Shown here in pieces: positions 3,764-41,729 of a stretch of 59,037 bases of DNA. The position numbers were made by a program, and so were the translations under genes. Every line of letters begins with the position of its first letter. Position 1 is the first letter of the stretch. The stretch is from assembly GCA_038324055.1 (NCBI GenBank), contig JBBQHO010000001.1, positions 1 to 59,037 of the forward strand, written 5' to 3'. The stretch is from Polyangiales bacterium (GTDB lineage: Bacteria; Myxococcota_A; Polyangia; Polyangiales; Polyangiaceae). The notes beneath the pieces were generated by a model, which had not been told where the DNA came from, ran no database searches, and saw only the letters and a list, made by a program, of their open reading frames with translations.

Positions 3764-3846
3764 AACCGGCGGCCCCTGGGGCGCTTCTGCGGAACGCCGG
3801 AGCGTGATTGACCCGGGATCCGAAGTTCGAGTAGCTCTGCAGTCGT

Positions 3847-4638
3847 ATGAAGAGCCTCCGACAGGGCAGTAAGGGAGCAGAGGTCAAGGCTTGGCAGTAC
3901 TTCCTGCGCGGCCAGGGGCTCTACCTGGGTGAAGTCGATGGCGCCTTTGGGCCTGCGAGCGCCCGGGCCAGTAGCGAATTCCAGAGAACTCAGGGTCTGA
4001 CGCCCGACGGCATCGTGGGCCTCATCACGCTCGGGCGCGCCATGCAGCTGGGCTTCGATCCACTCGAACGCGACACAAAGGATTTGCGCGAGGAAGGGCC
4101 CAACTTTCCGGCGCCGCTTGCTGGACTCAAGCCCGCGTCTTTCGCTCAACGCATCAAGCTCTTTGGCCAGTTCGAGTACGAACCCGCGCCCACGCCAGGC
4201 AATCGCGAGGGCATCAAGATTCTAGGCTCGTGGCAGAAGGAAAATATCGTCAGCGTCATGGTGCCCGAGCTGCGTGGCGTCGAAGGCGCTGGCAGCATGG
4301 GCAAAGTGCTCTTTCACAGTCGGGGTGCAGACCAGCTCCTGTCTCTGTTCGCCGCTTGGGCCGACGCGGGCCTCTTGCCGCTGCTGAAAACCTGGGCCGG
4401 TAGCTTTGCGCCGCGCTTCATTCGCGGCAGCACCGTGGCGCTTTCGAATCACGCTTGGGGCACGGCCTTCGACGTCAACGTGGCGTGGAACCCCTTGGGC
4501 GCACAGCCTGCCTTGCTGAACAGAATTGGTTCGGTACGCGCGCTCGTGCCCCTGGCCAACGCGCACGGCTTTTATTGGGGCGGTCATTTCCAGACGCGCC
4601 CGGATGGCATGCACTTCGAGCTGTCACGTTTGCTCTGA
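3847..4638 (+). CDS. peptidoglycan-binding domain + M15 (VanY/endolysin-type) zinc peptidase
   Basis: The N-terminus G.KG..V...Q..L...G.Y.G..DG.FGP.....EFQ...GL..DGIVG matches PG_binding_1. The C-terminus has SNHAWGTAFD (H-x6-D) and DGMHFE, the zinc ligands of the M15 family. No signal peptide. Confidence 0.85.
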   Translation: MKSLRQGSKGAEVKAWQYFLRGQGLYLGEVDGAFGPASARASSEFQRTQGLTPDGIVGLITLGRAMQLGFDPLERDTKDLREEGPNFPAPLAGLKPASFAQRIKLFGQFEYEPAPTPGNREGIKILGSWQKENIVSVMVPELRGVEGAGSMGKVLFHSRGADQLLSLFAAWADAGLLPLLKTWAGSFAPRFIRGSTVALSNHAWGTAFDVNVAWNPLGAQPALLNRIGSVRALVPLANAHGFYWGGHFQTRPDGMHFELSRLL

Positions 4639-4645
4639 CGGCGAA

Positions 4646-5209
4646 TCAACAGCCGCCGCAGGCAAAGCTGGTCGGGCCGCACTGCTCACCCGGCGTCGTC
4701 TTGTCGGTGGCAACATCCAGACAGTCGAGTTTGCACGAGCCGCTCTGGGGACACTCCACGCGACAGTCGCCCGTGCAGACGGCCTTGCAACTTCCGACCG
4801 ACTCGCAGCGGATTTCGCTGGAATTGCCGGCAAGCACGGTGCAATCGCTCACCGAGCGGCACTCGTATTTGCAGTTGTCGCCGCACTCTGTGTCGCAGCC
4901 GCTCGCAGACGTGCATGTCTGCGAGCAGTCGTCGCCGCATGTCGTCTTGCATTGTTCGCCCCCTCGACACTCCGCGTCGCATTGGGCAGCGCCACAATCA
5001 ATCGTGCAGTCTTTGAACGCTGAGTCACAGGTCGGCTTGCAAGTGCCCAAAAGCTCGCAATTGATCGTGCAGCTATCGACTCCAGGACCGCACGTACACT
5101 CTTTGCCCGCTTCGCAGCACGGGTCTTCCGGCGTGCAACGCTTGCCGCAGCCGCTCACCACGCTCGAAGCAACAATCAAAAGAAAAGCGAAGAACCAAGG
5201 CTTGAACAT
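4646..5209 (-). CDS. extremely cysteine-rich lipoprotein (33 Cys in 187 aa, periodic C-x3-C pairs)
   Basis: MFKPWFFAFLLIVASSVVSGC gives a signal peptide and lipobox. At least 11 C-x3-C units follow: CTINC, CKPTC, CTIDC, CDAEC, CKTTC, CSQTC, CDTEC, CKYEC, CKAVC, CRVEC, CKLDC. Confidence 0.75.
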   Translation of the reverse strand: MFKPWFFAFLLIVASSVVSGCGKRCTPEDPCCEAGKECTCGPGVDSCTINCELLGTCKPTCDSAFKDCTIDCGAAQCDAECRGGEQCKTTCGDDCSQTCTSASGCDTECGDNCKYECRSVSDCTVLAGNSSEIRCESVGSCKAVCTGDCRVECPQSGSCKLDCLDVATDKTTPGEQCGPTSFACGGC

Positions 5210-5331
5210 TGTTGGCTGATGCTACGCGCTTTCGCTGAGCTGCGGCCACTGGCTGACCGATTGCTCAACGCACGGCTTCAGAAAGCTCACCCGTCGCGTC
5301 GACTAGCACCGAAGGGGGCACGGTCGCGTCC

Positions 5332-7221: not shown

Positions 7222-7252
7222 GGCTCTTGGCCGTTCGCTTCAGGCAGGTTCC

Positions 7253-10200
7253 TTACTCGGCGGCGACGCGTTCGTGGAGATCGTCGCCAGCCAAGAGAGC
7301 TGTTAGTTCGGCCTCACCCCGATCGACGACCTTCTTCTTGCTGCGGCGCGCGAACCAATCCCCCATGTCATCGACCAGGCTGTGGATGACTGGCACGGCC
7401 AAGAGAGTGAGCAACAAGGAAAGCGTCTGACCGCCGACGACGATGCTGGCCGTTGCCTTGTTGAAGCCGGAACCGATGCCGCTCGACAACAAGAGCGGCG
7501 CCATGCCGGCTACGAAGGCGATGGTCGTCATCAAAATCGGCCGAAGGCGATCGCGGTTGGCGTCCATCAACGATTCGAATCGTCCAAGTCCCATGCGTCG
7601 CAGGTGGATCGTATGATCGACCTGGAGAATGCCATTCTTCTTCACCACACCAAACAAGACCAAGAGACCCAGCATCGAGAACATGTTGATGCTTTGTCCA
7701 AAAATCTTGAGACTGATGAAGGCGAAGGGCACCGTCAACGGTAGCGAAGCCAAGATGATTCCGGGATAGAGCCACGACTCGAACTGGGCCGCCAAGATCA
7801 GGTACATGAAGATGAAGGCCATGCCCAAAGCGAGTGCGAAGCCCGCCGCCAACTGCGACTGCGACTTGGACGAGCCCGTGGGCTGCAAGCGAAAACCGGG
7901 TGGTGGCTTGAGTTCTTCGAACTTCTGCTTGATCAAGTTGCTGACGTCAGTGTCGCCAAACCCCGGGGCCGGGTTGGCCAAAACAGTGATCTGCCTCTCG
8001 CGGCTGTAGCGATTGATGCGCGATGGGCCGATGCCGTCACCCCACTTGACCACCGAACTCAACGGGATGCTGCCGTATTTGCTCGAAGGCACGCTCATCA
8101 GCCCGAGAGAGGAAGGATCGGCGCGGAACTTCTCCTCGGCCCGAATCCGAATTTCGTACTCTTCGCCGCGCTCCGGGAAGGTCGAAGCCTTCACGCCGGC
8201 GACCAACATCTGCAGGGTCGAGGCGACGTTTTGAACGCTGACGCCCAAATCGGCCGCCCGATCGCGATCGATCGTGACCCGCACCTCCGGTCGACCGGGG
8301 ATGTTGGTGGTGTCCACGTCGGACGCCTTGCCGCTTTTGCGCAACGTGTCGGCAATCGCCGCCGCGTTCTTTTCCAGCACTTTGAAATCCGAACCGGAAA
8401 GGATGTACTGCACGCGCTGCGTGTTGCTCCCTACCGCAAAGTCCGGAACTTCGGCGATGTTGATGCGCAGGTTCTTGGGCATCTCGGCCAGGACCAGCGT
8501 GCGCGACTTGGCCATCAGCTCGACCTGCGATAGCTTGCGCGCGCCCGGGTCCTTCAAGTCGATGTAGATTTGGGCATAATTGCGCGTCTTTTGGTCGTCT
8601 TCGCCGACCGTGATGAGCGTGTGCGTCACCTCCGGTAGGCGGTTGACGATGCCGGCTGCGCGCTGAGCGAACAGCAGCGTTTCCTCGGCGCTCGTGCCTT
8701 CGGGCGCACGCATCGTCACCTGAAATTTGGCCTTGTCGTCAAGCGGCAGGAACGAACCCGGAAGCGATTTGGCAACGGGGACGCACGAACCCATGACGCC
8801 CACGCACAACAGCACGATCACCCAGCGCTTCTGCAGCGAGAAGCGCAACGCGCTCATGTACACATGTTCAATCGGCTTGTAGAAGCGATCGACCAGGCGC
8901 GTGAGGAAGTTGGGTTCGGTATGACCGGTCAGCATGCGCGCCGACATCATGGGAGTGAGCGTGAAGCTGACGATCAGCGATACGCCGACCGAAAAGGCCA
9001 TTGTGTAGCCAAAGCTGGCCAAGAAACGGCCGGGGATGCCACCCACGAAGGCCACCGGAATGAACACTGCCATCAGCGAGAGCGAGGTGGCCAGAACGGC
9101 CAGACCGATCTCTTGGGTTGCCAGCACGGCAGCAGGAAACGGCTTCATCTTCTTCTCGTCGATGAAGCGAATGATGTTTTCGAGCACGACGATGGCGTCG
9201 TCGATCACGATGCCGACAGCCAGGGCCAAGGCAAGTAGGGTGATGTTGTTGAGGGTGTAGCCCTGGAGCCACATGATGCCGAACGTACCGATGACGGAAA
9301 TCGGGATCGAAACGGCAGCGATGATGGTGCTCTTGGCATTGCCGAGGAACAGCAGCACCACGGCAGCCGCCAATAGCGCTCCCACGATCAAGTGCTCGGT
9401 AACGGCGTGTACGCTGGTGCGGATGGACTGTGAGTTGTCGCGAACGACGTCCAGCTGCACGCCCTTTGGAAGGCCGGCTTGCACCTCTTTGATGCGCTTG
9501 AAGATATTGTCGACCACCTCGATGGTGTTGGTGCCCGACTGCTTGACGATCGAGAGAACGACCGCTTCTTTGCCATCGTAGCGAGCCAAGCTCTCGACCG
9601 CCTCTTCGCCGTCCACCACGGTGGCGACGTCGGCGAGCCGCAGGATGCGGCCATTGTTCGAGCGCACGACCAAACGACCGACCGAGTCGATTGTGGTCAC
9701 GCGTCCGTCGATGCGCAGGGTCACGCTTTGCGGCCCGGTCGCCAGGTTGCCCCCAGGCGTCATCAGATTTTGCGTCGCCCACGTGTTCATGACGTCAACA
9801 GCCGTGATGCCGGACGCCTGCAACTTGACAGGGTCCATCAGCACGTGGATCTGCCGCTCGCGGCCGCCAATGATCGTCACCTTGCCGACGCCCAAGATGG
9901 TCTCGAGCTGGCGACGGACCTTCTTGTCCGCGATTTCCGAGACTTCGCGTAGACCCAAGCCGGTGCTGCGCAGGCCCAGATAGACGACCGGCGAAGCGCT
10001 CGGCTCGACCTTGCTGATCACCGGCTGCTCGATGCCGATCGGTAGCTCGCGCATCACGGTGTTGATCTTGTCGCGCACTTCTTGCGCGGCGACATTCGTG
10101 TCCTTGTCGAGCTTGAAGCTGATGATGACCTGCGAAACTCCTTCGCTGGAAACAGAGTTCAGGTCGTCGATGCCGGAAATCTGATTGACTGCGCCTTCGA

Positions 10201-28168: not shown

Positions 28169-29860
28169 ATGAGCGTCGTGATTGACTCGATGGGGCGTTC
28201 GATGTTGCCTGAGGCCGTGGCGGTCGTGTTGCGCTGGTTCTGGTCGTATCTCGTCGTCGTTGGCTTCGCCGTGCCTGCGGCTCGCGCCCAAGAACGAGTC
28301 GTCCCACCCACGCCCGCCGAGGATGGACAAGATGACCTCCCGGCGCCAGCACCAGTGCCCGTGACTACGGAGCCTCGGGCGGAGCTGCCAGAAGCGGACC
28401 CTCCGTCACAAAAGCCCAACCCTGCGACGCCCGATAGGGCTCCCGACGCGCTGCCCGTCGAGCCCCAGGACGACCTCCGGACGGCCCTGGCCGACGTCGA
28501 GCAGACAGGGTCACCCCCCCAGCCCCCCGCGGAAGGAACCAGCGAGCCGGCCAACGAAAAGGACCTGCCTCCCGAGCAAAAGCGCGAGCTGCCGAACTAC
28601 GATGGCCGCGAGGCGCAGCAGACCGACGCGGGCGACATCGTGCGCTGGATCCCACGCGTAGCGCTCTACCCCGCGTATCTATTTCTCCAGTACGGCATTC
28701 GGACGCCGACAGTCTGGGCAATCGCAAAGGTGGAAGAGACGCATCTGGCCGACAAGGTCACTGACTTTTTCACTTGGGACGAAGGCCAAGCTTACGCGTT
28801 TCCAGTCGCGACCTTCGACTTTGGCTTGCGACCCAACGTAGGGGCGATCTTCCACTGGACCGAGATGATCCCGCGCCACGATTTCGCAGCCACGTTCTTT
28901 GCGGGGCCCGGAGACCTGTGGGCGACCGGCGCGCAAGTCGATCAGAAACTGTTCCGCGACGAAGGCGCGCTGATCCGTTGGCGCGGTGGCTACGTGCGGC
29001 GACCCGACAACCCGTTCTTTGGCGTCAGCGATCTGAGCGCTCGCTGCAATCAGCTGGACTTCGGCTGCCGCTACCGCAGCGCCATCGCCGAAGCCAGCGT
29101 GAGCCTGGTGGGTTGGGAGAAGCAGCTGAACAGTCTCAGCTTCGGTACGACGTTTCGGCACGCCCGTTTCTCGACGGAAGAAACGGACAATCCGCCACTC
29201 ACGCCCACCGAAACCGCCGCCCTGCCCGCCTTCACGAATGGCTACCAGATCCTGCAGCCCGAGCTGAATTTCACTATCGACAACCGCCACGAAGATCTCG
29301 ACTTCGCGCGCGGCACGGGCTTGCGACTCGAGGGGCTCACCTCCTTCGCCGTCGACGTGCAGGAACCCAGCAGGCGCTGGTTTCGTGCTGGTGGCCAACT
29401 CGCTGCGTTCTACGACTTGGGCTTCGGTCAGATCTTGTCGACGAGTCTGTACTACCAAGGTGTACTCAATGTGAGCCGGCTCGAGGGCAGCACATCGACG
29501 CGCGCGCCCATCCCCTTCTACGAGCTGCCGTTCTTGGGTGGCCAAGACCAGATGAAGAGCTTCTTGCGACGACGCCTCATGGGCGCCAATGCCTGGGCTG
29601 CCAACTTCGAGTACCGCTACCCGATCAGCTGGGGTCTGGATGCGGCTTTGTTTTCGAGCATCGGCAACACCTACGACGATCTGCGTGAGTGGAATTTGGT
29701 CAAGAGCTACCTGAACTACGGCTTGGGATTGAAGCTGGCTACCGATCGTGTCTCGGCCTTCGAGGCCGTCGTCGGTTGGGGCTCCAATCGTCTCGACGAG
29801 GTCCGCTTCGATCCTTTCGATCAGTTCCGCTTGGCCTTCGGAGTCAGCAGGGGGTTTTGA
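28169..29860 (+). CDS. cassette B: Omp85/surface-antigen-type beta-barrel with Pro/acidic-rich N-terminal extension; paralog of 16986..18335
   Basis: Signal peptide ...VVVGFAVPAARAQ (the start may be 28190 or 28202). A ~110 aa Pro/Glu/Asp linker follows, then KRELPNYDGRE, WIPRVALYPAYLFLQYGIRTP, FLGGQDQM-type Omp85 loop and C-terminus RLAFGVSRGF. Confidence 0.8.
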   Translation: MSVVIDSMGRSMLPEAVAVVLRWFWSYLVVVGFAVPAARAQERVVPPTPAEDGQDDLPAPAPVPVTTEPRAELPEADPPSQKPNPATPDRAPDALPVEPQDDLRTALADVEQTGSPPQPPAEGTSEPANEKDLPPEQKRELPNYDGREAQQTDAGDIVRWIPRVALYPAYLFLQYGIRTPTVWAIAKVEETHLADKVTDFFTWDEGQAYAFPVATFDFGLRPNVGAIFHWTEMIPRHDFAATFFAGPGDLWATGAQVDQKLFRDEGALIRWRGGYVRRPDNPFFGVSDLSARCNQLDFGCRYRSAIAEASVSLVGWEKQLNSLSFGTTFRHARFSTEETDNPPLTPTETAALPAFTNGYQILQPELNFTIDNRHEDLDFARGTGLRLEGLTSFAVDVQEPSRRWFRAGGQLAAFYDLGFGQILSTSLYYQGVLNVSRLEGSTSTRAPIPFYELPFLGGQDQMKSFLRRRLMGANAWAANFEYRYPISWGLDAALFSSIGNTYDDLREWNLVKSYLNYGLGLKLATDRVSAFEAVVGWGSNRLDEVRFDPFDQFRLAFGVSRGF

Positions 29861-29862: not shown

Positions 29863-31638
29863 ATGTCCACGCCACAACGAACCGCAACGCGAACCTGGCT
29901 CGGTGTGTGTCTCTTGTTCTCGCTCGCCTGTAGCCGCGAAGTGCGCCGCTTTCCCTTGGCACCGCCGCTGTGGAGCGACGCGGACCAGCGACCGCTCGCC
30001 GAACAGCCCGACGACTACTATTCCGGCATCCGCGCTGACGCAGTCGACAAATTATTGCTCTATCCGCTCAGCAACATCGCCTCTCTCCCCCGTGACGGCG
30101 AGGCCCTGAACGTCAACGCCCTCGACGAAGTCCCCAACAGCAGCTGGTTTCAGAATCGCGTGGGTGTCTTTGACTACACGCCCGCGCAGATTGCCCGCGC
30201 AGAATGCGGCGACACGCCCGAACTCGATCCTGCAAACGGAAAGTGGTTGGTGGTCAACGCCAAGCCCGACGGCGCGAACCCAGGGTTTTTCATCAAAGCG
30301 CCAGACGGACACCGCTACCTGCTCAAGTTCGACGGCAAGAGTCAGCCGTTGCGCGCCTCCACCGCTGATGTCGTCGGATCCAAGCTGTATTGGGCTCTCG
30401 GCTACCATTCGGTCTGCAACGAAGTCGTCTACTTCGAGCCAGACAATTTAGTGATGGCGAAGGGCGCCATCACCAAGACCGCGCTGGGCGAAGAGCGACC
30501 GATGACCCAGAACGACATCGCCACCGTCTTGGCCCAGGGTTTTCGCCTCAAGGATGGCCGTGTGCGCGCATCGGCCAGCCGCTTCGTCCCCGGCAAGCCG
30601 CTCGGTCCATTCAAATACGAAGGCACTCGCTCCGACGATCCAAACGATGTGGTGCCGCACGAGGATCGCCGCGAGCTCCGCGCTGCGCACTTGCCCGCGG
30701 CTTGGATCAACCACATCGATGCGCGCGAGCAGAACACCTTCGACGTCGTAGTCGAAGAAGCGAAGCGAAAGTTCATTCGTCACTACATGATCGATTGGGG
30801 TGACTCCCTGGGCATCGGTTTCAATCCCGATCGCTTGGCACGACGCTTCGGGCACTCCTACGCCATCGATTTCGAGCAAATTGCTGAGGATTTCGTCAGT
30901 TTTGGTCTGCTGAAGCGACCGTGGCACGACCCCCACCGCAGCAAGGTGCAGATCTTTGGCTACTACGCCGTCGATGGTTTCGTGCCTTCGGAGTGGCGCG
31001 GCGTCTACTCGATTCCCGCGTTCAGCAAGCGCACACCAAATGACGTCTCGTGGATGACGCGCATCATGTCGCGTGTCACCGACGCGCACATCCAAGCCAT
31101 TGTCGCCCGCGCCAAGCTGCCCGACGAGCGCCAGTCGCTCTACCTGGAACGAGTGCTCATCGGCCGACGCGACAAGTTTTTCGAAGAGTATTTCTCCAAG
31201 TACCTGCCGCTCTCGGGATTTCGGATGGCCCGGCGTACGCCGGGCGAGACAAAGCAGTCTCTCTGTTTCGAAGATCTCGGCATCCAGCATGGGGTATCCA
31301 AGGCGTTCGAGACCTACTACCAGCTACGCTTTCGCGGCGGACTCGACCTGGAAAAGGAACTCGGTTGGGTGCAGTTCATGCCCGACGCAAAGCATCCGAC
31401 CTGGGCGTGCGTCGTGCTGCCCCTGGGCGACGTGCGCCCCGCGCAACTGGCCGGTGATGGCGCCTACGACGACGATCCGCGGAGGTACGGAGTCATGGAC
31501 CTCTGGGTGCACCAAAAGCCCACCGTACTACCCATGGGTCAGGTCCGGCTCCACTTCTACGATCTCGGCGAGAGCCGTGGCTATCGCTTGGTGGGCATCG
31601 AACGGCCTCGCGAAGTTCGCGTCCCGCTGGACTACTGA
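29863..31638 (+). CDS. cassette B: ~591 aa lipoprotein with a putative protein-kinase-like core; paralog of 15200..16996
   Basis: MSTPQRTATRTWLGVCLLFSLAC contains a lipobox. The ATG lies 2 nt after the barrel stop. Motifs: GANPGFFIK, RYLLKFD, WINHIDAREQN, MIDWGDSLG, GYRLVGIERP. Confidence 0.8.
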   Translation: MSTPQRTATRTWLGVCLLFSLACSREVRRFPLAPPLWSDADQRPLAEQPDDYYSGIRADAVDKLLLYPLSNIASLPRDGEALNVNALDEVPNSSWFQNRVGVFDYTPAQIARAECGDTPELDPANGKWLVVNAKPDGANPGFFIKAPDGHRYLLKFDGKSQPLRASTADVVGSKLYWALGYHSVCNEVVYFEPDNLVMAKGAITKTALGEERPMTQNDIATVLAQGFRLKDGRVRASASRFVPGKPLGPFKYEGTRSDDPNDVVPHEDRRELRAAHLPAAWINHIDAREQNTFDVVVEEAKRKFIRHYMIDWGDSLGIGFNPDRLARRFGHSYAIDFEQIAEDFVSFGLLKRPWHDPHRSKVQIFGYYAVDGFVPSEWRGVYSIPAFSKRTPNDVSWMTRIMSRVTDAHIQAIVARAKLPDERQSLYLERVLIGRRDKFFEEYFSKYLPLSGFRMARRTPGETKQSLCFEDLGIQHGVSKAFETYYQLRFRGGLDLEKELGWVQFMPDAKHPTWACVVLPLGDVRPAQLAGDGAYDDDPRRYGVMDLWVHQKPTVLPMGQVRLHFYDLGESRGYRLVGIERPREVRVPLDY

Positions 31639-31720: not shown

Positions 31721-33127
31721 TCAGCCGGCCGTAGCGGGCTCTTTGCCGGGCTCGTCACCGGCCGATTTCGTGCGTTCCGCGTAGGCCTTGCCCAAGCGGA
31801 AGGCGACCCACAACCAAACCGCGACCAAGGCAGCGTTGACCGCGGCAAACAAGGACAAGGGTGCGTGCAGCCAACGCAGGCCTACGAACACCAGGCCGGC
31901 GCTGAACACGTCGCCAGCTCGCACGAAGATCGTGTCGACGACCTGCTTGGCCTTGTACTTTTCTTCGGCGGTGAGCGGTAAGAACAGCGCGTTGCGCACC
32001 GTGTTGTTCAGCGAATAGTCAAAAGCGTTCTCGGCCGTCTTGGCCCAGCGCACGGTCCAGAGCACCGGAAGGAACGCCACCCCAAGATAGCCGAACAACG
32101 CTACAGCGGGCAGAACGAGCAGCGCTACGCGAACGCCCAGATGGCGGATGAAGCGTGGCGCGATGACGAGTTGAATGAAAGCACCCAGCAAGTTCACCCA
32201 AAAATAGAAATTCGAGTAAAACTGCCCGATCCAGACCTTGACCTGGTCCCCACTGACGACGCGCGCCGCTTGTTCCGAAGCGAAGCTGCCCAGCAAGAAC
32301 TCACCCGTGGTGTTGACCAAGTTGCTCAGCAACATGAGCACGCCGATGAGCCGCAGGTAGGGGCTCTGGATGACGAGCTGGAACGCGCCAGCGCCGCTGT
32401 TCGTCTCCTTTTCCGCCTCCTGCTTCTTCTTGCTCTCGGGGCCTTCCTCGACCGCTTTCGCTGCGCGTGCGCTGAAGTACTCCGACGCCAACGTCAGCAG
32501 CAGCGCTCCGATCAAGAGGACGCCGCTCACCAACAGCATCTGCGGCACACCTAGCGGGCCGACGAGTAGGCTGGTCAGCTCGCTACCCGCTACCGCTCCC
32601 GACGAAGCGCCGAAAGCCACGATCGGAAACAGACGTTCGCCCTGCTCGCGCGAGTAGAGATCACTGGCAAAGGCCCAGAACTGCGCCACCACCATCAGAT
32701 TGAAGATGCCGACCCAGAGGAAAAACACGATCCCAAGTCCAGGCATTTGCGCTTTGGCAGCGAAGTAGAACGCCACCAGGCAGCCGACGAAGATGAACGT
32801 GACCGTGCGAATCAACTTGGCGCGGTCGAAGTGATTCACCAGCCACGAGTAACCGGGCACGATCAACGCCAGCAGCACCACCTGGCCGACCGCCGCATAG
32901 CTTTTGATCTCGGCTCCTCCACCCGACAGAATCAACGCTTCACGCACGGGCTTGAGCACGTAGTAAGCGCACAAAAGCAGACAGACGTTGAGTGCGAGTA
33001 ACAGCGCAGACGCGCCCTCTCCCCTCCGCACGATGGTCAGGAGGCCGAGTGCGCGATCGATCCAAGAGAGCGACGCCGAGTCTTTGGAAGGCTCGGCCGC
33101 TTTGCTGTCCGTCATGCCCTCAGGCAA
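31721..33127 (-). CDS. TLC-family (ATP/ADP translocase-like, Npt-type) MFS transporter
   Basis: About 12 TM helices. YYVLKPVREALIL and VAQFWAFASDLYSREQGERLFPIVAFGASSG resemble the TLC signature (QFW.FAN.I...EEAKRFYPLFG). The start could be 33127 or 33115. Confidence 0.8.
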   Translation of the reverse strand: MPEGMTDSKAAEPSKDSASLSWIDRALGLLTIVRRGEGASALLLALNVCLLLCAYYVLKPVREALILSGGGAEIKSYAAVGQVVLLALIVPGYSWLVNHFDRAKLIRTVTFIFVGCLVAFYFAAKAQMPGLGIVFFLWVGIFNLMVVAQFWAFASDLYSREQGERLFPIVAFGASSGAVAGSELTSLLVGPLGVPQMLLVSGVLLIGALLLTLASEYFSARAAKAVEEGPESKKKQEAEKETNSGAGAFQLVIQSPYLRLIGVLMLLSNLVNTTGEFLLGSFASEQAARVVSGDQVKVWIGQFYSNFYFWVNLLGAFIQLVIAPRFIRHLGVRVALLVLPAVALFGYLGVAFLPVLWTVRWAKTAENAFDYSLNNTVRNALFLPLTAEEKYKAKQVVDTIFVRAGDVFSAGLVFVGLRWLHAPLSLFAAVNAALVAVWLWVAFRLGKAYAERTKSAGDEPGKEPATAG

Positions 33128-33488
33128 CCATGACGAACGAGCCCGTCAAAGCGGTCGCAGTCACAATCGCAAAGCACACCTGCTTGAGCCCCCGGGCGCG
33201 CACCGACCTGAGCTCGGCGGTGTTGGCGATGCGCTCACTGCCGCAACCCGTTTGTCGGAAGCCAGCCCATGCAGAAAAGCCACAGGTCTGAAACATGCCC
33301 TGAAAAAAGCCGTTGGCCGAAAGGAAGAACGGCACCAGCAAGACCCAGCGCAGGCTAGGGCTCGCGCCACTCCGCTCCAAGGTGACAGCCAGAGCCAAGC
33401 CCAGGCCCAGGGCCACAATGCCGAACCTGAGGCGTCGCGCCACATTGACGTCGGCCAAGTTGCCAGCGAGTTCGTTTCCGGAAGCCAT
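33120..33488 (-). CDS. small membrane protein (DUF2892/YgaP-like, weak)
   Basis: NVARRLRFGIVALGLGLALAV and FFQGMFQTCGFSAWAG resemble the DUF2892 pattern. The start could be 33488 or 33524. Its end overlaps the TLC gene start. Confidence 0.5.
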   Translation of the reverse strand: MASGNELAGNLADVNVARRLRFGIVALGLGLALAVTLERSGASPSLRWVLLVPFFLSANGFFQGMFQTCGFSAWAGFRQTGCGSERIANTAELRSVRARGLKQVCFAIVTATALTGSFVMVA

Positions 33489-33540
33489 AGCTACTACTGT
33501 AGCCAGAGCGAAAGGGGCGCGCATCCCCCCCTCCGAGTCG

Positions 33541-36276
33541 ATGCCTCAGGCCAGCAGCTTTCCCGCCCGGACCAGTTCACGTCCGCCAGCAACTCCCGGA
33601 TTTTGGCAACGTTTTGCCGACGTTCGCCCGGGCGAGGGCTGGCTGGTGGCGGGCGCGTGCGTGGTTTTGGGCGGGATCGTGGGCGCGCACGTGCTGCTCG
33701 AGACCGCCCGGGACGCCCTTTTTCTAACTAAGCTGAAACCGAGCGCCCTGTCCCTGGTCTACATCGCCATGGCGGTCCTGGGCTTCGTGACCGCGCGCGC
33801 CGACCAAATGGTCAGTCGCGTGTTCGGTCGAAAGAACGCCCTCGTTCTGGCGCTCATGGTCGCCTCGACCGGCACGTTGCTTTTTTACACGAGCACCATC
33901 GGCAAGGCTGGTGCGTTCGCGCTGTACCTATGGGCGGGCGTGATTGGCACGCTGCTGACGGTTCAATTCTGGCTCACTGCGGCGCAGCGCTTCACGCCCG
34001 GACAGGGGCGGCGCATCTACGGTCTTTTGTCGGCCGGAGGCGTTCTGGGCGCAGTGATCGGCGGCGTCATCGGTGCGCTGTTGGCGCAAGGGCTGTCCGT
34101 GAAAAGCCTGTTGCCTGCATCGGCGGCAATGCACTTGCTTACTGCGTTGGTCGTGACTTTCGCGCCACCCGCGACCGAGCTTGCGCCAGCGCCCGAAAAG
34201 GCAAAAGTCGGCGCAGAGATCCGAGCGGTTCGCTCGAATGCCTACCTCGCACGCGTCGGCATTCTGATTCAGCTGTCGGGCGCGACGCTGCTCATCGTCG
34301 ACTACTTGTTCAAGTCCGTGATGGCCACCCGGCTGCCGCCCTCCGACCTCGGCATCTACCTGGCGCGTTACTACGCCATCATGAATGCCGTCGCGCTGAT
34401 CGTGCAGGTGTTCGTCACCATGCAGGTGCTGCAGCGCATGGGCACCATTTTGGCGCTCACCCTGTTACCCTTGTGTCTGCTCTTGTCCGGAGCGGCTGGT
34501 TTGTTCTTCGGAACGGCGATGTTGGCGGTACTGCTCGCCAAGGGTTCGGACGGCGCCCTACGCTTTTCACTGCATCGCGTCTCGACCGAGCTGTTGTTCC
34601 TGCCACTGAGCAACGAGGAGCGTACCAAGGCCAAACCCTTGTTCGATTCGGTGCTGGCGCGCGGTACTCAGGCCCTCATTGCGGTCGTGATCCTGGTTCT
34701 CAATCAGTTTCACCTCGCCAGCAACAACGTCCTGGGGACCTTGATCGCCAGCCTGTCGCTGCTGTGGATTCTGGTCGCCTGGTCACTTCGCGCACCTTAC
34801 TTGGAGCGCTTTCGCTCGACGCTCGGTGGCCAGGCGCGCGCTCGTTCGTTCGAGCTGCTGCAACTGAATCTCGACAGCGTAGTCGTGTTGGTTGAAGCAC
34901 TGTCGAGCCCGGACGAAAATCGAGTGATTGGCGCCATGAGTCTGTTTCACGAAGGGCGTCGCAGCAATCTGATTCCTGCGCTGGTGCTTTACCACCCAAG
35001 CCCGCGCGTGCTGGCTCGCGCGCTCGAGGTCATTCCTGCGCCCGGACGGAAAGATTGGGTTCCGCTCGCAGAGCGATTGCTGCAGCACGACGACCGCGAA
35101 GTCCGACTCGCTGCCATCCGCGCCCTGGGCTCGAGCGGCTACATGGACCGCATCGATCCTTCGGCGTTCTCGGATATGGCGGGGCTGCGCGCCACGGCCG
35201 CCTTCTTCGTGGCCGGCCAGTCCGCAGTTCCTCGCAACGAAACTTCTGTTGCCGAGTTCTTGGCCGAGGACGCCGACCCCCAGGGGCAACTGGCCCTACT
35301 CGAAGCCATCAGCAAGCTTGGCACGGCGCGCTGGGCCGACGTCGTGCTCGAACTCCAGAAGCGCGGGCGCCGTGAACTCGATCGCGTGTTGCCACTCGCA
35401 ATGGCTCGCACTCGTGACTTACGCTTCGTCCCGCTACTCATTCAGCGCCTGGCTCATCGGGAGGGCCGCAATGAGGCGCGTGAAGCTCTCGCGGCGCTTG
35501 GCGCTCCCGCGCTCGAAGCGCTCCGTTCCGCTCTTGACGATCGCACGACCGATCCGGCCGTACGCCTGCACATTCCCCGCGCTATTTCACGTTTTGGTTC
35601 GCACTCCGCGGGCGAGATGCTGGTCCACATGCTGTCGCAGGACCTGCCGGGCGCCGTACGCTACAAGGCACTGCGCGGCTTGGGCCGCGTGGTGTCGACC
35701 AGCGATTTCTCCGTCGATGCAGCGCGTATCCTGCCGGTGATCGAGCAGAACCTGGTTGAGTACGCGCGCATCGAGATGTCGCTGCGCATCTTGGGTGAGC
35801 GCGCCGGCCCCACGCCTTTGAGTGGCGTCCTGTTCTTCGGGCTACTGGCAGACAAGCGGCGCCAGGCGCTCGAACGCGCCACGCGCCTGTTGCAACTTCT
35901 CCACCCGCGCGAGGATCTGCGCCGGGTCTACTACGCGCTCTTGTCGGACGAAGGCTCCAATCGCGTGGCCGCCGCCGAAATTCTCGAAGTCACGAGCCTG
36001 GGCTACGGTGAGACGCTGCGGAGCCTGTTGCGCGTCGCCGCCGAGCCGCGCCAAGACCTGGCCCCCCTCGAAAGCTACGCCAGCGCGCTTTCCATTCCGG
36101 TGCCGCACGAGGTGGATACGCTCCGAGAGCTGATGGCCAATGCCGATCCGCTCGTTTCGGCCTTGGCCGCGTCCTACGCCATGGAACTCGAGAACAGCGA
36201 ACTCGCATCTGCCATCGAAGCTGCCACCAGCTGCAATGCGTGGCTGATCGAACACTCCAACGCGAGCATGCGATGA
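33541..36276 (+). CDS. TLC-like MFS transporter fused to a C-terminal HEAT/ARM-repeat domain
   Basis: The N-terminal half has multiple TM helices, with LLETARDALFLTKL and TVQFWLTAAQRFTPGQGRRIYGLLSAGG (TLC-like). The C-terminal ~480 aa has HEAT-like units (DDREVRLAAIRALGSSG, DPAVRLHIPRAISRFG, VRYKALRGLGRV). The Arg-rich extension from 33313 was rejected. Confidence 0.8.
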   Translation: MPQASSFPARTSSRPPATPGFWQRFADVRPGEGWLVAGACVVLGGIVGAHVLLETARDALFLTKLKPSALSLVYIAMAVLGFVTARADQMVSRVFGRKNALVLALMVASTGTLLFYTSTIGKAGAFALYLWAGVIGTLLTVQFWLTAAQRFTPGQGRRIYGLLSAGGVLGAVIGGVIGALLAQGLSVKSLLPASAAMHLLTALVVTFAPPATELAPAPEKAKVGAEIRAVRSNAYLARVGILIQLSGATLLIVDYLFKSVMATRLPPSDLGIYLARYYAIMNAVALIVQVFVTMQVLQRMGTILALTLLPLCLLLSGAAGLFFGTAMLAVLLAKGSDGALRFSLHRVSTELLFLPLSNEERTKAKPLFDSVLARGTQALIAVVILVLNQFHLASNNVLGTLIASLSLLWILVAWSLRAPYLERFRSTLGGQARARSFELLQLNLDSVVVLVEALSSPDENRVIGAMSLFHEGRRSNLIPALVLYHPSPRVLARALEVIPAPGRKDWVPLAERLLQHDDREVRLAAIRALGSSGYMDRIDPSAFSDMAGLRATAAFFVAGQSAVPRNETSVAEFLAEDADPQGQLALLEAISKLGTARWADVVLELQKRGRRELDRVLPLAMARTRDLRFVPLLIQRLAHREGRNEAREALAALGAPALEALRSALDDRTTDPAVRLHIPRAISRFGSHSAGEMLVHMLSQDLPGAVRYKALRGLGRVVSTSDFSVDAARILPVIEQNLVEYARIEMSLRILGERAGPTPLSGVLFFGLLADKRRQALERATRLLQLLHPREDLRRVYYALLSDEGSNRVAAAEILEVTSLGYGETLRSLLRVAAEPRQDLAPLESYASALSIPVPHEVDTLRELMANADPLVSALAASYAMELENSELASAIEAATSCNAWLIEHSNASMR

Positions 36277-37313
36277 AGGGCTTCTTCGAAAGTGTGGCCG
36301 GTGAGGGCACGCGTGAGCCCGATGCCTCGGAGCTGGAGCGCACACTGTGGATGCGCTCTTTGCTGGGCGGCGAGATGCCCCCGGGGTCGGCGGACACGCT
36401 GGCCCAACGCATTCGCGAGAATTTCTTTGCCAAGGGGCAGCATCTCTACCGACAAGGCGACGCATCCGACCGAATCTTCTTCGTGGTTCGCGGCACGGTG
36501 GCGCTCTTGCACCGTGGCATCAAGACCCGCGAGTTCGGTCCGCGTGACGTACTCGGCTTGATCGACGCGCTGCAGAACCGCCCGCACGCTTTCGATGCCT
36601 TGGTGCGCGAAGACGCCGTCGTGCTCGAGCTGGAACTCGACGATTGGCTCGAGTTTCTGGAGGACAGCTTCGAATTCACGCGGGCGATCATTCTGCGCTT
36701 GGCCAGTGGTTTGCCTCCGACTTCCGCTCCTGGGCGGGACCTCAGCCGTCCGACCGCGCAGCTGCGCGCACGCCGCGACGAGCCGCTCCAGCACAGCGGG
36801 GACAGCTACCGCGCTTCGCTGGGCCCTCGCCTTTCGCTCTCGTTCGTCGAACGCTTGGCGATCTTGCGCGCCTGCCCACCGCTCACCGGCTCGGGCATCC
36901 AGGCACTCTCGCGTCTGGCGCGCTTCGCCGAGTTGGTTTTCCTCGAACAAGAGGAGCACCAGATGCTCGTTCCGCCCAATCTCTACGTCGTCGAGTCGGG
37001 TTGCGTGCGCTCCGTCGCGAACGATGACAAGGGCAATACTTGGACGGAACAGATGGGCCCAGGTGGCGCGCTCGGCGGACTCGGCGTCATTCAACCGGGC
37101 CTCTACGACGTCGAGGTGACGGCGCTCGAGCCATCGTCGTTGTTTCGTATTCCTACCGAGCGTTTGTTCGACGTGATGGAAGACCACTTCCCGCTCGCGC
37201 TTTCGTTCTTTGCCCACATTTCGGGCGAAGCCGAAGCCCAGGCGCTCGAACGGAAGAAGGCCTCCGACGCTTCGGCCAGCTCGAGCCTGTCCAATCCTGC
37301 CAGCAGCGAGTGA
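36273..37313 (+). CDS. tandem cyclic-nucleotide-binding (CAP_ED) domain protein with no output domain
   Basis: FAKGQHLYRQGDASDRIFFVVRGTVALL and a second YVVESGCVRSV...GPGGALGGLGV. ATG 36273 overlaps the upstream stop as ATGA. Confidence 0.8.
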   Translation: MKGFFESVAGEGTREPDASELERTLWMRSLLGGEMPPGSADTLAQRIRENFFAKGQHLYRQGDASDRIFFVVRGTVALLHRGIKTREFGPRDVLGLIDALQNRPHAFDALVREDAVVLELELDDWLEFLEDSFEFTRAIILRLASGLPPTSAPGRDLSRPTAQLRARRDEPLQHSGDSYRASLGPRLSLSFVERLAILRACPPLTGSGIQALSRLARFAELVFLEQEEHQMLVPPNLYVVESGCVRSVANDDKGNTWTEQMGPGGALGGLGVIQPGLYDVEVTALEPSSLFRIPTERLFDVMEDHFPLALSFFAHISGEAEAQALERKKASDASASSSLSNPASSE

Positions 37314-37380
37314 CACAGCGCCCCCCCGCAAGCCGCGCCCGGGGGCCCATCGAGACCCGCGTCCTCGGGGCCCGCTGAGA

Positions 37381-39999
37381 TCAGTTGGTCGCCTGAAAAC
37401 GCAAGGTGAGTCGCCGGAGCAACGCTTGACCCGTGGCGCCCTGATCCACGTAGTAGACCTGATTGCCGAGCAGAAGCGGCGCGACCGTTTGCGAAGACGG
37501 ACCTTCGAGCACGACGAGCGGGGCAAGACCGGGCGTTCCGCGGCCTCTCCAACTCAGCCCCCACAGCTCGCCGCGATCACTGACGTCCAAGCTAGCCACG
37601 ATGTGGCACTCCTCTCTATCGCATTCCGCCGAAAAGCCGCGCGCGCGGCCAGGCAGTGGCACTTCGGTGGGTGGAGCAACGAAACGTCCGGCGCCGTCAA
37701 TCTCGGCAAGGAAGAGCGCGCTGGGCGCCTTCTCGGAAGCAGGATCGGCTTCGAGCCAGCCCAGCAACGCCGTGTCGCCTTTGCTGCCGAGAGTAGCGAG
37801 CGCAGGTGAGTGGGAGTGCAGCTCGGTCGCCGCCAGACGGCGCGTGGCGCCGAGAGGTTCGGCTGTCTTTTCGTCCAGGCTCACCATGTGCAGGTCGGCA
37901 AAGCCGGGACGAGAAGAGCCGCGGGCGTCGGACCAGGCGACGACCACCGCTTCGCCGAGTTTTGCGATCGTGACACCAGTGGCTTGTTCGGCGCCGTCGC
38001 TGAGCCGCTGTTCCTTGCCGATGGGTTCGAGCTGGTCGTTGACCAGCGCCGCGTAAACCTCGGCGTTGTCGGAGCGGCCATCCACCCAAGCCACGAGGTA
38101 GCCCGCGGTCGTGGCCACAGCCGCGATGTCGGTCACTTCGCCGCCGGGCCGCTTGTAGATCTTTTGCTTGAGCTTTTTGCCAGCTTCGTCAATCGACGTC
38201 AGGAACAAGTGAGGCTCGGCCGCATCGAGCGCCGACCAACCCAGCAAGCTCGGGCGCCCCGGCGCCGAAGCCAAGCTCACACCGCCCAGCGAGCGCGCGC
38301 GGTAAGAGACGACCGTCTCGCCGCTCACGCCCACGACGCCCTGCTTGTCGTCGTCGATCGACTGGGTCTCGAGCAGCGCGCGCACCGGCGCCATGCGACC
38401 GTCGGGGGCGGGCTTCGTCACCTTCGCTTCGGGCAAGGTCGAATCGAAATAGCTGACCCAAGCGAGCAACGCGCCTTCGCCGCGCGCCCTTCCTCGCAGC
38501 GTCGCCAGCTCGGGCACCTGGCCCACGACCTCTTGCCGCAGCACACGCGGCGTCGGCGCTTGCGTTTCGGCCACGAGCGGCGAAACCAAGCCCCCGGTGC
38601 CCGCCAGGTCGAGCACAAATACTGCTGGATTGTCCCTCCCTTCGGCGCCAAGCGCGAAACAACCCCGTTCGTTGCACTTGGGGTCCCAGACGAGGGTCGC
38701 AGGTTGACGTGTCATTTGAGCCAACTCGAGCGGACTCGTTTGGACCGCCGTGAGTTCGTGGTTGGCGCGCAAGAGCAAGCGCTCGGTCGGAGGGGCATCG
38801 CATTTGCGCCCGATCTCGCAGCGGTGCGATTCGACGAGACCGATCAGGGTCCTCCCGGCCATCGTGAACAGGGGCAAAAGCGATGCGCTACCAGGCGCCG
38901 CCAGGGTTGCGTCGGGTACGTCCACATGACCGTGCGCATCCAGGCGACCGACGAGCAGCGAACGACCGCGGAGCGGCCGCCGCGCCGGTTCTTCCCAGAC
39001 GGCGAAGATGTCGGACGTCTGAGGGCCGCTGACGAGTCGCACCAGTGCTTGTTCGCCACGCGCGGGGGTGAGCGAGTCGACGGCCTCGACCACGCGGAAG
39101 TTCTCGTCGACGACGACGCGGCGCAATCGGTTTTCGAACGTCGTCTTCTCGCTGAAGACAACGACCGTCTGGTGCTGGGAGGAAGCCAAGTCGAGATCGA
39201 GACCGCCGCGAAAGCCATGCGCCAGAGTGAGGGGCGGGCCCTCTGCCTGGGCCTTTTCGGCGAATTTTCGCAACACCACGGTGCGCGAACTGGCAGGGCC
39301 TTCGAGCGTCACCAGCAAGGTCTGGGCGGTTCCGCCCAATTGCCAGGCGCTCACTGCACGCGCGACCCGTTCGGGTCGTCCAGGAGCGCCGCCGGCGCGT
39401 ACCTGCAACGCGTAAATGTCCGCTGCACCGCGCTGCACCTCCGCCCAGAAAACGATCGCGCCGGTCGCTGTCGGACGAGCGTCGGTCCACAAGATCTCGG
39501 TCGGTGTTTCAGCGACGACGTGTGGTCCGGCCGCCAGCTTGCCGTCCCCAGAGATCTCGAGCAGCTCCAGCACTTCTTGACTGCCCGAACGGCGCGTCAG
39601 CAGGGCGAGTACGCCACTAGGACCAAAGTCGGAGAGTTCGAAGGAGCGAAGCCCTTCTGCCGAAGGCGTCAAGCGCATCGATGCGCCCGGCGTGCCCGTG
39701 TAAGGCACAACGAGGCTGTGGACCCCCGGTTGTTCTCCGCGCGGGGCCGCCCAAACGACCAGCCGTGCTTCGGGACGCAGACTGAGATGGGGCCCAAAGG
39801 TGCCTTCACCCATGGTTCCGACCAGCGTGCTGATGATGCCGGACTCCTTCGACTCCTGCTCCTTCTTCGTGGGAACGCGCGCGCTGGGCCGCACCGACAG
39901 AGGCGCGTCACTCGAATGACCCGGACGGCAACCCGACAACGCTGCCAGAACGACGCCCCAGGCCGCGAGACGAGACCAAACGACACGTCGAGAGTTCAC
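37381..39999 (-). CDS. large (~870 aa) lipoprotein with repeated beta-propeller-like units
   Basis: GTG 39999 gives MNSRRVVWSRLAAWGVVLAALSGC (lipobox). The ATG at 40062 is an alternative start. At least 8 recurring hydrophobic-hydrophobic-[AG]-W strands: VVWAAP, IVFWAE, FAVWEE, LLAWVS, LLGWSA, LVAWVD, VVAWSD, LLGWLE. Confidence 0.75.
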   Translation of the reverse strand: MNSRRVVWSRLAAWGVVLAALSGCRPGHSSDAPLSVRPSARVPTKKEQESKESGIISTLVGTMGEGTFGPHLSLRPEARLVVWAAPRGEQPGVHSLVVPYTGTPGASMRLTPSAEGLRSFELSDFGPSGVLALLTRRSGSQEVLELLEISGDGKLAAGPHVVAETPTEILWTDARPTATGAIVFWAEVQRGAADIYALQVRAGGAPGRPERVARAVSAWQLGGTAQTLLVTLEGPASSRTVVLRKFAEKAQAEGPPLTLAHGFRGGLDLDLASSQHQTVVVFSEKTTFENRLRRVVVDENFRVVEAVDSLTPARGEQALVRLVSGPQTSDIFAVWEEPARRPLRGRSLLVGRLDAHGHVDVPDATLAAPGSASLLPLFTMAGRTLIGLVESHRCEIGRKCDAPPTERLLLRANHELTAVQTSPLELAQMTRQPATLVWDPKCNERGCFALGAEGRDNPAVFVLDLAGTGGLVSPLVAETQAPTPRVLRQEVVGQVPELATLRGRARGEGALLAWVSYFDSTLPEAKVTKPAPDGRMAPVRALLETQSIDDDKQGVVGVSGETVVSYRARSLGGVSLASAPGRPSLLGWSALDAAEPHLFLTSIDEAGKKLKQKIYKRPGGEVTDIAAVATTAGYLVAWVDGRSDNAEVYAALVNDQLEPIGKEQRLSDGAEQATGVTIAKLGEAVVVAWSDARGSSRPGFADLHMVSLDEKTAEPLGATRRLAATELHSHSPALATLGSKGDTALLGWLEADPASEKAPSALFLAEIDGAGRFVAPPTEVPLPGRARGFSAECDREECHIVASLDVSDRGELWGLSWRGRGTPGLAPLVVLEGPSSQTVAPLLLGNQVYYVDQGATGQALLRRLTLRFQATN

Positions 40000-40091
40000 C
40001 GCGCGACCGTAGGCGAGCCCGCGTACCCTGTACAAGTGGCCGCTTCGCGTCGCCAAAGCCAACCGGACCTCCTAGGCTCGACACCAGCCTC

Positions 40092-41729
40092 GTGACCCTG
40101 CGTCTTCGCCTCTTGCTCGCCACGTTCGTGCTCAGTCTGACCACGACGGTCGTCCTCGCCTGGGGGGTGCGCACCGCCTGGCGCGGTGCGGAACTAGAAC
40201 GTTTCGATCAGGAATTTCAGGCCGCTACGTCCGAACTCGAGGACGAACTTTCCAAGGCTGCGACCGAGAAGCAGAAGCTCTTCGAGCCGCTGTGCGCCCA
40301 CGAACCCCTCGTCGACAGCGCGCTGATCGGCCTGTCAGCGGGTGACCTGTCGTCGCGACTGCTCCCGCTTCGACTCCGTGTCCCCGAACTGCAAAAGGCC
40401 CTCGGTCTCGACGAGCTGGCACTGATCGCCGACGACGGCGAGATCCTGGCGGGCGAAGTGCCGACCCGACCTCCAGGGGGAGAAAAGGCGCTCGGCGAGC
40501 TGGTCGAACGGCGCGCGACAAGCCCGGGCCTGCGAGAAGACGGGGAGGCGGCGTTCGCCATCGCCTGCGTCAAGAAGAGCGGGGGTCGGTGGGTAGGATT
40601 GCTCGGAGCCCAACACCTCGCCGGTTATTTGACTGCGGCGCGAGCCCGCTACGGACTCGAACTCAGCTGGCAAGGTCCGAGTGAACAGACCACAAAATCG
40701 GGTGACTCGCTGATGCAGCGGGCGCTTTCGAGCCCGGCCCTTGGCGAGCGCGTCCTGCTGGCTTCGCGCAGTCGTCTGGCACTCAGCGACGCGGTACAGA
40801 ATCTCGACCTCCGCGTGGTCGTCATCTCGCTCATCGCGCTCGGCCTCGCCTCGATCATCGCCGTCTGGTTGAGCCGAGGTTTGGCGGGCCCGGTCGTCGC
40901 CTTCGCCGAGCGCGCTCGCGCTGCCGTTTCCGGGACGCCCGAACCCCTGCCGCTTTCCGGCGGACCCGAGCTCGAACAGGCAGCCCACGCTTTCAATCAG
41001 ACCTTGGCCGACCTGAGTGCACTCCGCGATCGCCTGGCCATCACCGAACGCATCGCTGCTCGGCGCGAAGTCGCGCGCCAAATCGCCCACGAAATCCGCA
41101 ATCCGCTTTCACCCATCCGCAGCGCCATCGAGACGCTGCGGCGTCTCAAGAGCCGCGGCGCGCCCGAATTCGAGGAGTACTTCGACGAAGCCACCCGTAC
41201 CGTCCTGGGCGAGGTCGCGCGCATCAACGATCTCGTTCGTTCGTTCAGCGAGTACGCTAGCCTGCCGAGTCCGCGCCCGAGTGAGTTCGATTTGAGCCTC
41301 CTCTGTCGCGAGCTGGTGTCGCTGCATCAGACAGCGAACGTGGCGCTGCTGTTGGATACTCCAGGTCCGCTGCCGATTGTGGCCGACCGTGCGCAGCTGA
41401 CTCAGGTGCTGACGAATCTCATCAAGAACGGCATCGAAGCAACCAGTGAAATCGCCGACGCCGAAGTCCGAGTCAGCGTCCGCGCGAATGGCGTGGGCCG
41501 GGTCGAAGTCTGCGTGAGCGACAATGGGCCGGGTGTGCCCGACGAGTTATCGGCGCGCCTGTTCGAACCCTACCTGACGACCAAGGCTGGCGGCACCGGA
41601 CTTGGTCTTCCCATCTCACAGCGGATCGCCGTCGAGCATGGTGGAGATTTGCGGCTTCTGCCTGGGGTAGGCCGAGGTGCGACCTTCGCTCTCTTGCTGC
41701 CCGAACGCGGGCCGACCACTTCGATATGA
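40092..41729 (+). CDS. sensor histidine kinase (NtrY/AtoS-like: 2 TM, HAMP, HisKA, HATPase_c)
   Basis: H-box QIAHEIRNPLSPI, N-box LTNLIKNGIEA and G-boxes DNGPGV, GGTGLGLPISQRI. GTG start. Confidence 0.9.
   Translation: MTLRLRLLLATFVLSLTTTVVLAWGVRTAWRGAELERFDQEFQAATSELEDELSKAATEKQKLFEPLCAHEPLVDSALIGLSAGDLSSRLLPLRLRVPELQKALGLDELALIADDGEILAGEVPTRPPGGEKALGELVERRATSPGLREDGEAAFAIACVKKSGGRWVGLLGAQHLAGYLTAARARYGLELSWQGPSEQTTKSGDSLMQRALSSPALGERVLLASRSRLALSDAVQNLDLRVVVISLIALGLASIIAVWLSRGLAGPVVAFAERARAAVSGTPEPLPLSGGPELEQAAHAFNQTLADLSALRDRLAITERIAARREVARQIAHEIRNPLSPIRSAIETLRRLKSRGAPEFEEYFDEATRTVLGEVARINDLVRSFSEYASLPSPRPSEFDLSLLCRELVSLHQTANVALLLDTPGPLPIVADRAQLTQVLTNLIKNGIEATSEIADAEVRVSVRANGVGRVEVCVSDNGPGVPDELSARLFEPYLTTKAGGTGLGLPISQRIAVEHGGDLRLLPGVGRGATFALLLPERGPTTSI

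Follow-up and report, generated by a model that had tools for sequence, protein, structure and literature searches.

A 59,037-nucleotide (nt) stretch of the genome of a Polyangiales bacterium (assembly GCA_038324055.1, contig JBBQHO010000001.1, positions 1 to 59,037 of the forward strand; here called the window) carries two adjoining genes, denoted A and B. Gene A encodes a membrane carrier of the TLC/NTT clade that continues into a long tail of HEAT-type repeats, and gene B, which is translationally coupled to A, encodes a soluble protein that consists of two cyclic nucleotide-binding (CNB) folds with degenerate phosphate-binding cassettes. We read the pair as an NTT-clade carrier with a co-translated regulatory subunit that would respond to a ligand other than cAMP or cGMP, or to none, with transport serving a phosphotransferase of the cell envelope; this reading is held with slightly better than even confidence. 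Judged by sequence, A and B are orthologous to an operon of NTT-HEAT plus cNBD that has already been published (Major, Embley and Williams 2017, Genome Biol Evol, PMC5381601), and the architecture is not new. The initial annotation of the locus had implied otherwise, although the 2017 paper already contained the architecture together with its link in an operon, as well as the triple fusion and the idea of regulation by cAMP. The elements that are new here are the degenerate cassettes, the divergent carrier site, and a recurrent five-gene neighborhood.

In the 2017 analysis, NTT-HEAT fusions were found to form a monophyletic group with a wide distribution among bacteria, Deltaproteobacteria being one example; a cNBD gene was described downstream “at a distance of several nucleotides,” NTT-HEAT-cNBD triple fusions were shown to exist, and it was suggested that cAMP might adjust NTT-mediated ATP uptake (PMC5381601). 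The pair in the window shares with these systems the domain order, NTT followed by HEAT (PF13646 and PF02985), as well as the PF00027 gene that is located downstream or fused. Nothing essential differs; in the window, the partner is encoded separately, by a gene that overlaps A by 4 nt, and it contains two CNB domains. The 2017 paper contains no report of degenerate cassettes or of a link to TLC-only, Omp85-like, or kinase-fold genes. A literature search identified no functional study of NTT-HEAT/cNBD proteins, and the two later papers in which the term is used do no more than cite the 2017 work, in agreement with the statement in the initial annotation that the function of such fusions is uncharacterized.

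Gene A (positions 33541 to 36276, plus strand) runs from the ATG at 33541 to the TGA at 36274 to 36276 and specifies 911 amino acids (aa). Gene B (36273 to 37313, plus strand; 346 aa) starts with the ATG at 36273 to 36275, and the stop and start codons overlap within the tetranucleotide ATGA at 36273 to 36276, as had been noted initially and as can be read directly from the sequence. Relatives of A were collected with an alignment-derived pattern from one genome per GTDB species, which yielded 474 relatives; 80 of these loci were retained. The relatives came through the pattern only, and none was returned when the A protein alone served as the query of a genome scan. The 80 loci originate from Myxococcota, Vicinamibacteria/Acidobacteriota, Binatia, Eisenbacteria, Gemmatimonadales, and Bdellovibrionales. 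The gene immediately after A is a homolog of B in 70 of the 77 assessable loci (70/80 of those kept, the remaining 3 being without downstream DNA) and in 43 of the 49 well-flanked loci that are left by a stricter filter. This pairing spans Myxococcota, Acidobacteriota, Eisenbacteria, and Gemmatimonadales. The first in-frame start of B falls 1 to 11 nt upstream of the stop codon of A in at least 40 of the 70 orthologous loci. In some cases, the two genes are merged: locus L013 encodes an A-B fusion in a single open reading frame (ORF) of 1297 aa, and the proteins P0091 and P0093 combine TLC, HEAT_2, and cNMP_binding within one chain. Thus, A and B are translationally coupled, and their adjacency is not due to chance, because conservation of about 90% across phyla is accompanied by stop/start overlaps and natural fusions. 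The proposal that the cNMP gene would prove to be a conserved neighbor was therefore borne out by this survey. A promoter and terminator scan of positions 33000 to 37600 gave nothing above background.

The membrane half of A was assigned to the TLC/NTT clade from several lines of evidence. The Pfam model TLC (PF03219) matches A with 38.6 bits (E value of 8e-10; cut-off, 21 bits) over model positions 407 to 489 only, that is, the C-terminal part, whereas MFS_1 remains below its cut-off (24.5 versus 33.4 bits). The membrane domain (residues 31 to 415; positions 33631 to 34785, plus strand) comprises approximately 12 transmembrane (TM) segments according to a hydropathy scan, which are arranged 6+6 around a central loop (residues 206 to 234). 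A profile built from 14 orthologous membrane domains and searched against every PDB chain matches only 9j3n and 9j3j (E value of about 1e-16), and it matches no other structure of the major facilitator superfamily (MFS) at an E value of ≤0.1. Generic MFS membership was dropped as an identity for A because the PDB profile matches are confined to NTTs; the TLC-like character that the initial annotation had given to this half, as opposed to generic MFS, is in accord with these matches. The motif VQFWLTAAQRF...GRRIYGLLSAGG (residues 141 to 167; TM4-TM5; positions 33961 to 34041, plus strand), on which that suggestion was based, lines up with FWGFANQ...KKFYPLFGLG of the solved NTTs (NTT1), and Q142, W144, Q155, R158, G161, and G170 are invariant among 27 homologs. 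By these sequence comparisons, A is a 12-TM inner membrane carrier of the TLC/NTT clade of the MFS, and its relation to the canonical NTTs is distant, with about 22% identity to Arabidopsis NTT1 and only 33 bits against the NCBIfam NTP/NDP-exchanger model TIGR00769, far under the cut-off of 387 bits. With the canonical NTTs (Arabidopsis NTT1, 9j3j; “ADP,ATP carrier protein 1,” 9j3n; TCDB 2.A.12), A has in common the 12-TM MFS-type carrier and the motifs FW...Q...K/R.Y.L.G.G and E...P, but the canonical proteins are without the 470-aa solenoid of A, and the host of A is free-living.

Proteins of this kind are numerous. There are 398 full-length homologs of A, and 1240 cluster representatives were retrieved at an E value of ≤1e-30 from the 1.84 billion searched. 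Nearly all of the best 150 relatives are about 900 aa long and have the NTT-HEAT architecture, and most of the 120 A homologs among the matches listed carry a precomputed TLC plus HEAT architecture. The nearest relatives belong to uncultured Polyangiaceae/Myxococcota metagenome-assembled genomes, and one metagenomic protein (P0001) is 94% identical to A and equal to it in length.

The carrier site of A diverges from that of characterized ATP/ADP carriers. Both carriers in the window, A and a TLC-only paralog (gene C, described below), were aligned with Arabidopsis NTT1 (AtNTT1); the numbering used is supported by K155, E245, E385, and K527, all of which were found in the AtNTT1 sequence at a constant offset of one. 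These are the critical charged residues of Arabidopsis AATP1, which are widely conserved (PMC4256464). The position of K155 is occupied by L70 in A (Y74 by hand alignment) and by Lys in C, and that of E245 is occupied by G133 in A and by Gly in C. At the two other positions, E385 corresponds to D254 in A and to Glu in C, and K527 corresponds to R374 in A and to Arg in C, both A residues being invariant. Charge is kept in A at only two of the four critical positions (D254 and R374), and the initial designation of A as an ATP/ADP transporter is not supported on this point. The intramembrane residues E54, R57, D58, Q142, D254, K258, E350, and R374 are invariant in the 27 distant homologs. The cargo of A is probably a nucleotide-like anion, which need not be ATP or ADP and which we regard as the most economical guess.

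The C-terminal part of A, from residue ~440 to residue 911 (positions 34858 to 36273, plus strand), is a HEAT-type alpha-solenoid. Pfam HEAT_2 matches with 63.7 bits (E value of 2e-17), and HEAT and HEAT_PBS match as well; direct HEAT profile matches are confined to residues ~500 to 715 within the ~470-aa repeat region. The HEAT-like repeats that the initial annotation described are therefore present, and the length it gave for them, about 480 aa, is corrected to about 470 aa. With a family profile, alphaRep and PBS-lyase structures match residues 500 to 712 with repeats of ~31 residues and E values down to 2e-28. The solenoid thus resembles alphaRep and the PBS-lyase HEAT-like proteins of the CpcE/F type (5n3u), and there is a weak NCBIfam CpcF match. 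A bilin-lyase role for these HEAT_PBS-like repeats was considered and dropped, the likeness being one of repeat type only; phycobilisomes are not known from Myxococcota. Carriers of the MFS usually have an N-in/C-in topology, and because of this the C-terminal 470 aa of A are predicted to be cytoplasmic, by analogy with these carriers.

Gene B encodes a soluble tandem CNB-fold protein in which PF00027 (cNMP_binding) matches two stretches (90.8 bits; E value of 5e-26), and the Pfam scan detected no further domain, hence no output domain. The AlphaFold2 (AF2) model has a predicted local distance difference test (pLDDT) score of 80.7 and shows CNB barrels at residues 48 to 121 and 220 to 294, a disordered linker, and a long C-terminal helix. 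The top PDB matches of the model in Foldseek are the tandem-CNB regulatory subunits of PKA and PKG, the single best one being the regulatory subunit of a cAMP-independent PKA from Trypanosoma. Sequence, Pfam, and AF2 agree with the initial description of B as two CNB domains without an output. With the Trypanosoma subunit (6h4g, 6flo, and 6hyq, the last of which is described as guanosine bound), B shares two consecutive CNB beta-barrels, hinge helices, and the replacement of cassette residues. Compared with PKA/PKG regulatory subunits, to which it is 10 to 15% identical, B is without a kinase partner, and its presumed target would be the HEAT solenoid of the carrier. B might have its ortholog in Myxococcus xanthus CbpB, which has two cAMP-binding domains.

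Both phosphate-binding cassettes of B are degenerate. In CNB-1, the cassette GLIDALQNRPHAF (residues 95 to 107; positions 36555 to 36593, plus strand) has Leu in place of the Glu and His in place of the Arg; the HMMER alignment of the surrounding GPRDVLGLIDALQNRPHAFDALV to domain B of PKA RI-alpha sets GLIDAL...RPHAF against GEIALL...RPRAA. In CNB-2, the cassette GGLGVIQPGLYDV (residues 268 to 280; positions 37074 to 37112, plus strand) has Gly for Glu, with GGLGVI against GELALI of PKA RI-alpha in the HMMER alignment, and Tyr for Arg, the Arg position being an ungapped continuation of that alignment and less certain than in CNB-1. The same columns were counted in 64 orthologs of B taken from A loci. 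At the Glu position, Ile, Val, Gly, Met, Phe, and Leu dominate in CNB-1, and Gly and Ala dominate in CNB-2; Glu is outside the six most common residues, such that no more than a few of the sequences could have it there. The Arg is kept in CNB-1 by 32 of the 64 orthologs and in CNB-2 by 18 of the 64. The closer set of 26 B homologs agrees with these counts. The initial annotation had proposed a transporter gated by cyclic nucleotides; with Glu and Arg replaced in both domains and Glu absent family-wide, such gating is doubtful, cNMP binding by B appears unlikely, and B is probably not a plain cAMP/cGMP receptor. Because both cassettes are without the Glu/Arg pair, the ligand of B is probably neither cAMP nor cGMP. 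CNB folds with altered cassettes use other ligands, as in CooA, NtcA, PrfA, and the KCNH channels.

The helix that follows each CNB domain of B contains a nearly invariant acidic motif, WLEFLEDxF (residues 124 to 133) and FDVMEDHF (residues 299 to 306), respectively. These helices are the most conserved parts of B, and it may be through them that B contacts the HEAT solenoid. The net charges of the solenoid and B (-5 and -14) lend no support to electrostatic complementarity between the two. In the mechanism that we propose, B would dock onto the solenoid of A as a regulatory subunit; a small cytosolic molecule would bind B, changing the hold of the solenoid on the carrier, and transport would be tuned in this way. 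A purine nucleoside or nucleotide as the ligand of B, or else a constitutive, ligand-free role, would be likelier than cAMP or cGMP. The carriers would move a nucleotide across the inner membrane and serve an extracytoplasmic kinase-like enzyme, the candidate for which is encoded upstream of A.

This candidate, gene E (positions 29863 to 31638, plus strand; 591 aa), most plausibly encodes a lipoprotein that lies outside the cytoplasm and has an atypical, Fam20/CtkA-like kinase fold, on the basis of alignment, an AF2 model, and Foldseek comparison. Sequence searches of Pfam and the PDB gave nothing significant for E, CtkA being the top, nonsignificant sequence match. There are 1295 homologs, with about 50% identity across Myxococcota, and in their alignment, Cys23, which follows a hydrophobic signal helix at the N terminus, does not vary. 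Also invariant are K155, H284-x-D286-x-R-x-Q-N291, and D311-W-G-D314, which fit the pattern of a catalytic Lys, an HxD...N loop, and a metal-binding Asp. The AF2 model (pLDDT of 87; predicted TM-score [pTM] of 0.88) is matched in Foldseek by Fam20C/A, CtkA, PI4KII-alpha, and VPS34 with a probability of 1.0 and an E value of about 3e-4, the TM-scores being only 0.25 to 0.5. With Fam20C/Fam20A and Helicobacter pylori CtkA, E may share an atypical protein kinase-like fold and a predicted extracytoplasmic location; it differs from them in its low identity (~10%), an extra C-terminal beta-sandwich, and an Omp85-like partner gene. The E family would in effect be one of unannotated extracytoplasmic kinase-like lipoproteins, as judged from the model.

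The partner, gene O (positions 28169 to 29860, plus strand; 563 aa), encodes an Omp85-like outer membrane barrel with a long Pro-rich N-terminal region. It has no Pfam match at an E value of ≤0.001 and was identified through its identity (31 to 34%; E values of 1e-69 to 1e-74) to PF01103-carrying genes that are located directly upstream of E in two other loci (L081, positions 4442 to 5998; L082, positions 4388 to 5998). The end of the Omp85-like gene and E are separated by 2 nt in the window and by 2 to 3 nt when distant genomes are counted. Gene C (positions 31721 to 33127, minus strand; 468 aa), the TLC-only paralog, matches Pfam TLC with 58.4 bits and MFS_1 with 36.3 bits, shares about 25% identity with the membrane domain of A, and recurs close to A-B and close to E in other loci. 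Gene D (positions 33120 to 33524, minus strand) encodes a small membrane protein of 134 aa. Two segments of this protein are hydrophobic, and it contains a CGF...GC motif; it has no significant Pfam match, a YgaP-like_TM match being nonsignificant. It overlaps the start of C by 8 nt, forming an operon with C, and is divergent from A, with a gap of 16 bp between its longest start and the ATG of A. This divergent arrangement upstream of A is found in 16 of the 49 well-flanked A loci, mostly from Myxococcota.

The neighborhood was also examined from the side of E, in a sample of 80 metagenome loci, 23 of which are flanked by 4 kb or more of sequence on each side. Among these 23 loci, an Omp85-like gene is present in 21, a TLC gene is present in 16, a C-type gene is present in 11, an NTT-HEAT gene is present in 9, and a B gene is present in 5. 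In two metagenome contigs, the five genes are found in the order A-B-C-O-E on one strand (L105, Ga0114940_10000038, positions 15 to 7575; L106, Ga0163144_10027864, positions 14 to 7695), and in L105, stop and start codons overlap at every junction, making the cluster one operon. This recurring neighborhood suggests nucleotide exchange for an extracytoplasmic kinase. A 49-kb metagenome contig (L083, Ga0105046_10000678) stems from a close relative of the Polyangiales bacterium; in it, O, E, C, D, A, and B are kept in order and orientation with 88 to 94% protein identity. On the other side, B is followed by a convergent 893-aa ORF without a Pfam domain (positions 37381 to 40062, minus strand) and then by a HAMP-HisKA-HATPase histidine kinase (positions 40092 to 41729, plus strand). 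These two genes adjoin A-B in the closest locus, L001 (50% and 56% identity), and not in more distant loci.

Several observations weigh against our interpretation of A and B as a carrier and its regulatory subunit serving an envelope enzyme. The literature search returned no transport, binding, or interaction experiment for any family member. From the side of A, the link to the envelope genes is infrequent, with C, E, or O lying within 6 kb of A in only 8 of the 49 well-flanked loci. No cyclase, whether for adenylate or guanylate, and no phosphodiesterase or nucleotide metabolism gene was found within 10 kb by Pfam annotation of the ten neighboring ORFs. As to the ligand of B, cassette loss does not exclude cyclic nucleotide binding, and the Arg is retained in CNB-1 of half of the B orthologs. 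As to the cargo of A, Heinz et al. report that the substrates of NTTs are not predictable from sequence and that microsporidian NTTs without three of the four charged residues exist.

A more specific form of the same interpretation can be envisaged, in which A, B, C, O, and E make up one envelope system: the carriers would export ATP or another nucleotide to the periplasm, fuelling the kinase-like lipoprotein E, which would work with O, and the solenoid and B would throttle export according to the cytosolic purine state. We consider this version unlikely. The bacterial periplasm is generally regarded as lacking ATP, and such an export system, if real, would form a line dedicated to supplying it with ATP.

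Among the alternatives, the one that survives best is the classical proposal (Major et al. 2017), which the initial annotation shares and under which B binds cAMP or cGMP supplied by a cyclase encoded elsewhere and brings the ATP/ADP exchange or uptake carried out by A into line with the energy state of the cell. The strong PF00027 match and PKA/PKG-like fold of B are in its favor, as are the cassette Arg kept in CNB-1 of half of the orthologs and the placement of A in a clade whose characterized members mostly carry ATP; the idea also has the merit of being already published. However, B in the window is without Glu and Arg in both cassettes, the Glu is missing throughout the family, A has kept neither K155 nor E245 of the ATP/ADP carriers, and there is no cyclase near the locus, such that we regard this explanation as unlikely. 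A nucleotide scavenging system that spans the envelope comes next and is also unlikely: O and E would capture or process external nucleotides, A and C would import them, and B would provide feedback from the cytosolic pool. The clustering of O, E, C, A, and B, which follow one another on a single strand in L105 and L106, would be accounted for, characterized NTTs are importers, and kinase folds bind nucleotides. Yet E keeps the full, invariant catalytic-type set K155, D286, N291, and D311, which speaks for an enzyme more than for a binding protein; furthermore, no Omp85-family barrel is known to act as a nutrient channel.

Less probable still is a role of A as a scaffold or “transceptor” that is no working carrier, with the MFS domain sensing a ligand and the solenoid recruiting B and possibly other signaling partners. 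HEAT solenoids are typical protein-protein scaffolds (PMC5381601), A has lost two of the four residues of the carrier site, and B is without an output domain of its own, all of which would fit, but the invariant intramembrane charged and polar residues in the 27 distant homologs form the pattern that is expected for an active transport path. Finally, the notion that A and B are adjacent without functional meaning, with B an independent CNB protein, can draw on the 7 of the 77 assessable loci without a downstream B but is scarcely credible, being close to refuted by the synteny, overlaps, and fusions described above.

Textbooks treat NTT carriers as markers of energy parasitism, and the spread of NTT-HEAT proteins in free-living bacteria has been a question since 2017, which this locus narrows but does not answer. 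The narrowing consists in a partner sensor that probably does not act as a simple receptor for cAMP/cGMP and in a recurrent association with a second carrier, an Omp85-like barrel, and a predicted extracytoplasmic kinase-fold lipoprotein. Together, the carrier with its putative regulatory subunit and these neighbors offer a testable idea, namely, that the carriers may move nucleotides for the chemistry of the cell envelope rather than for the theft of host ATP.

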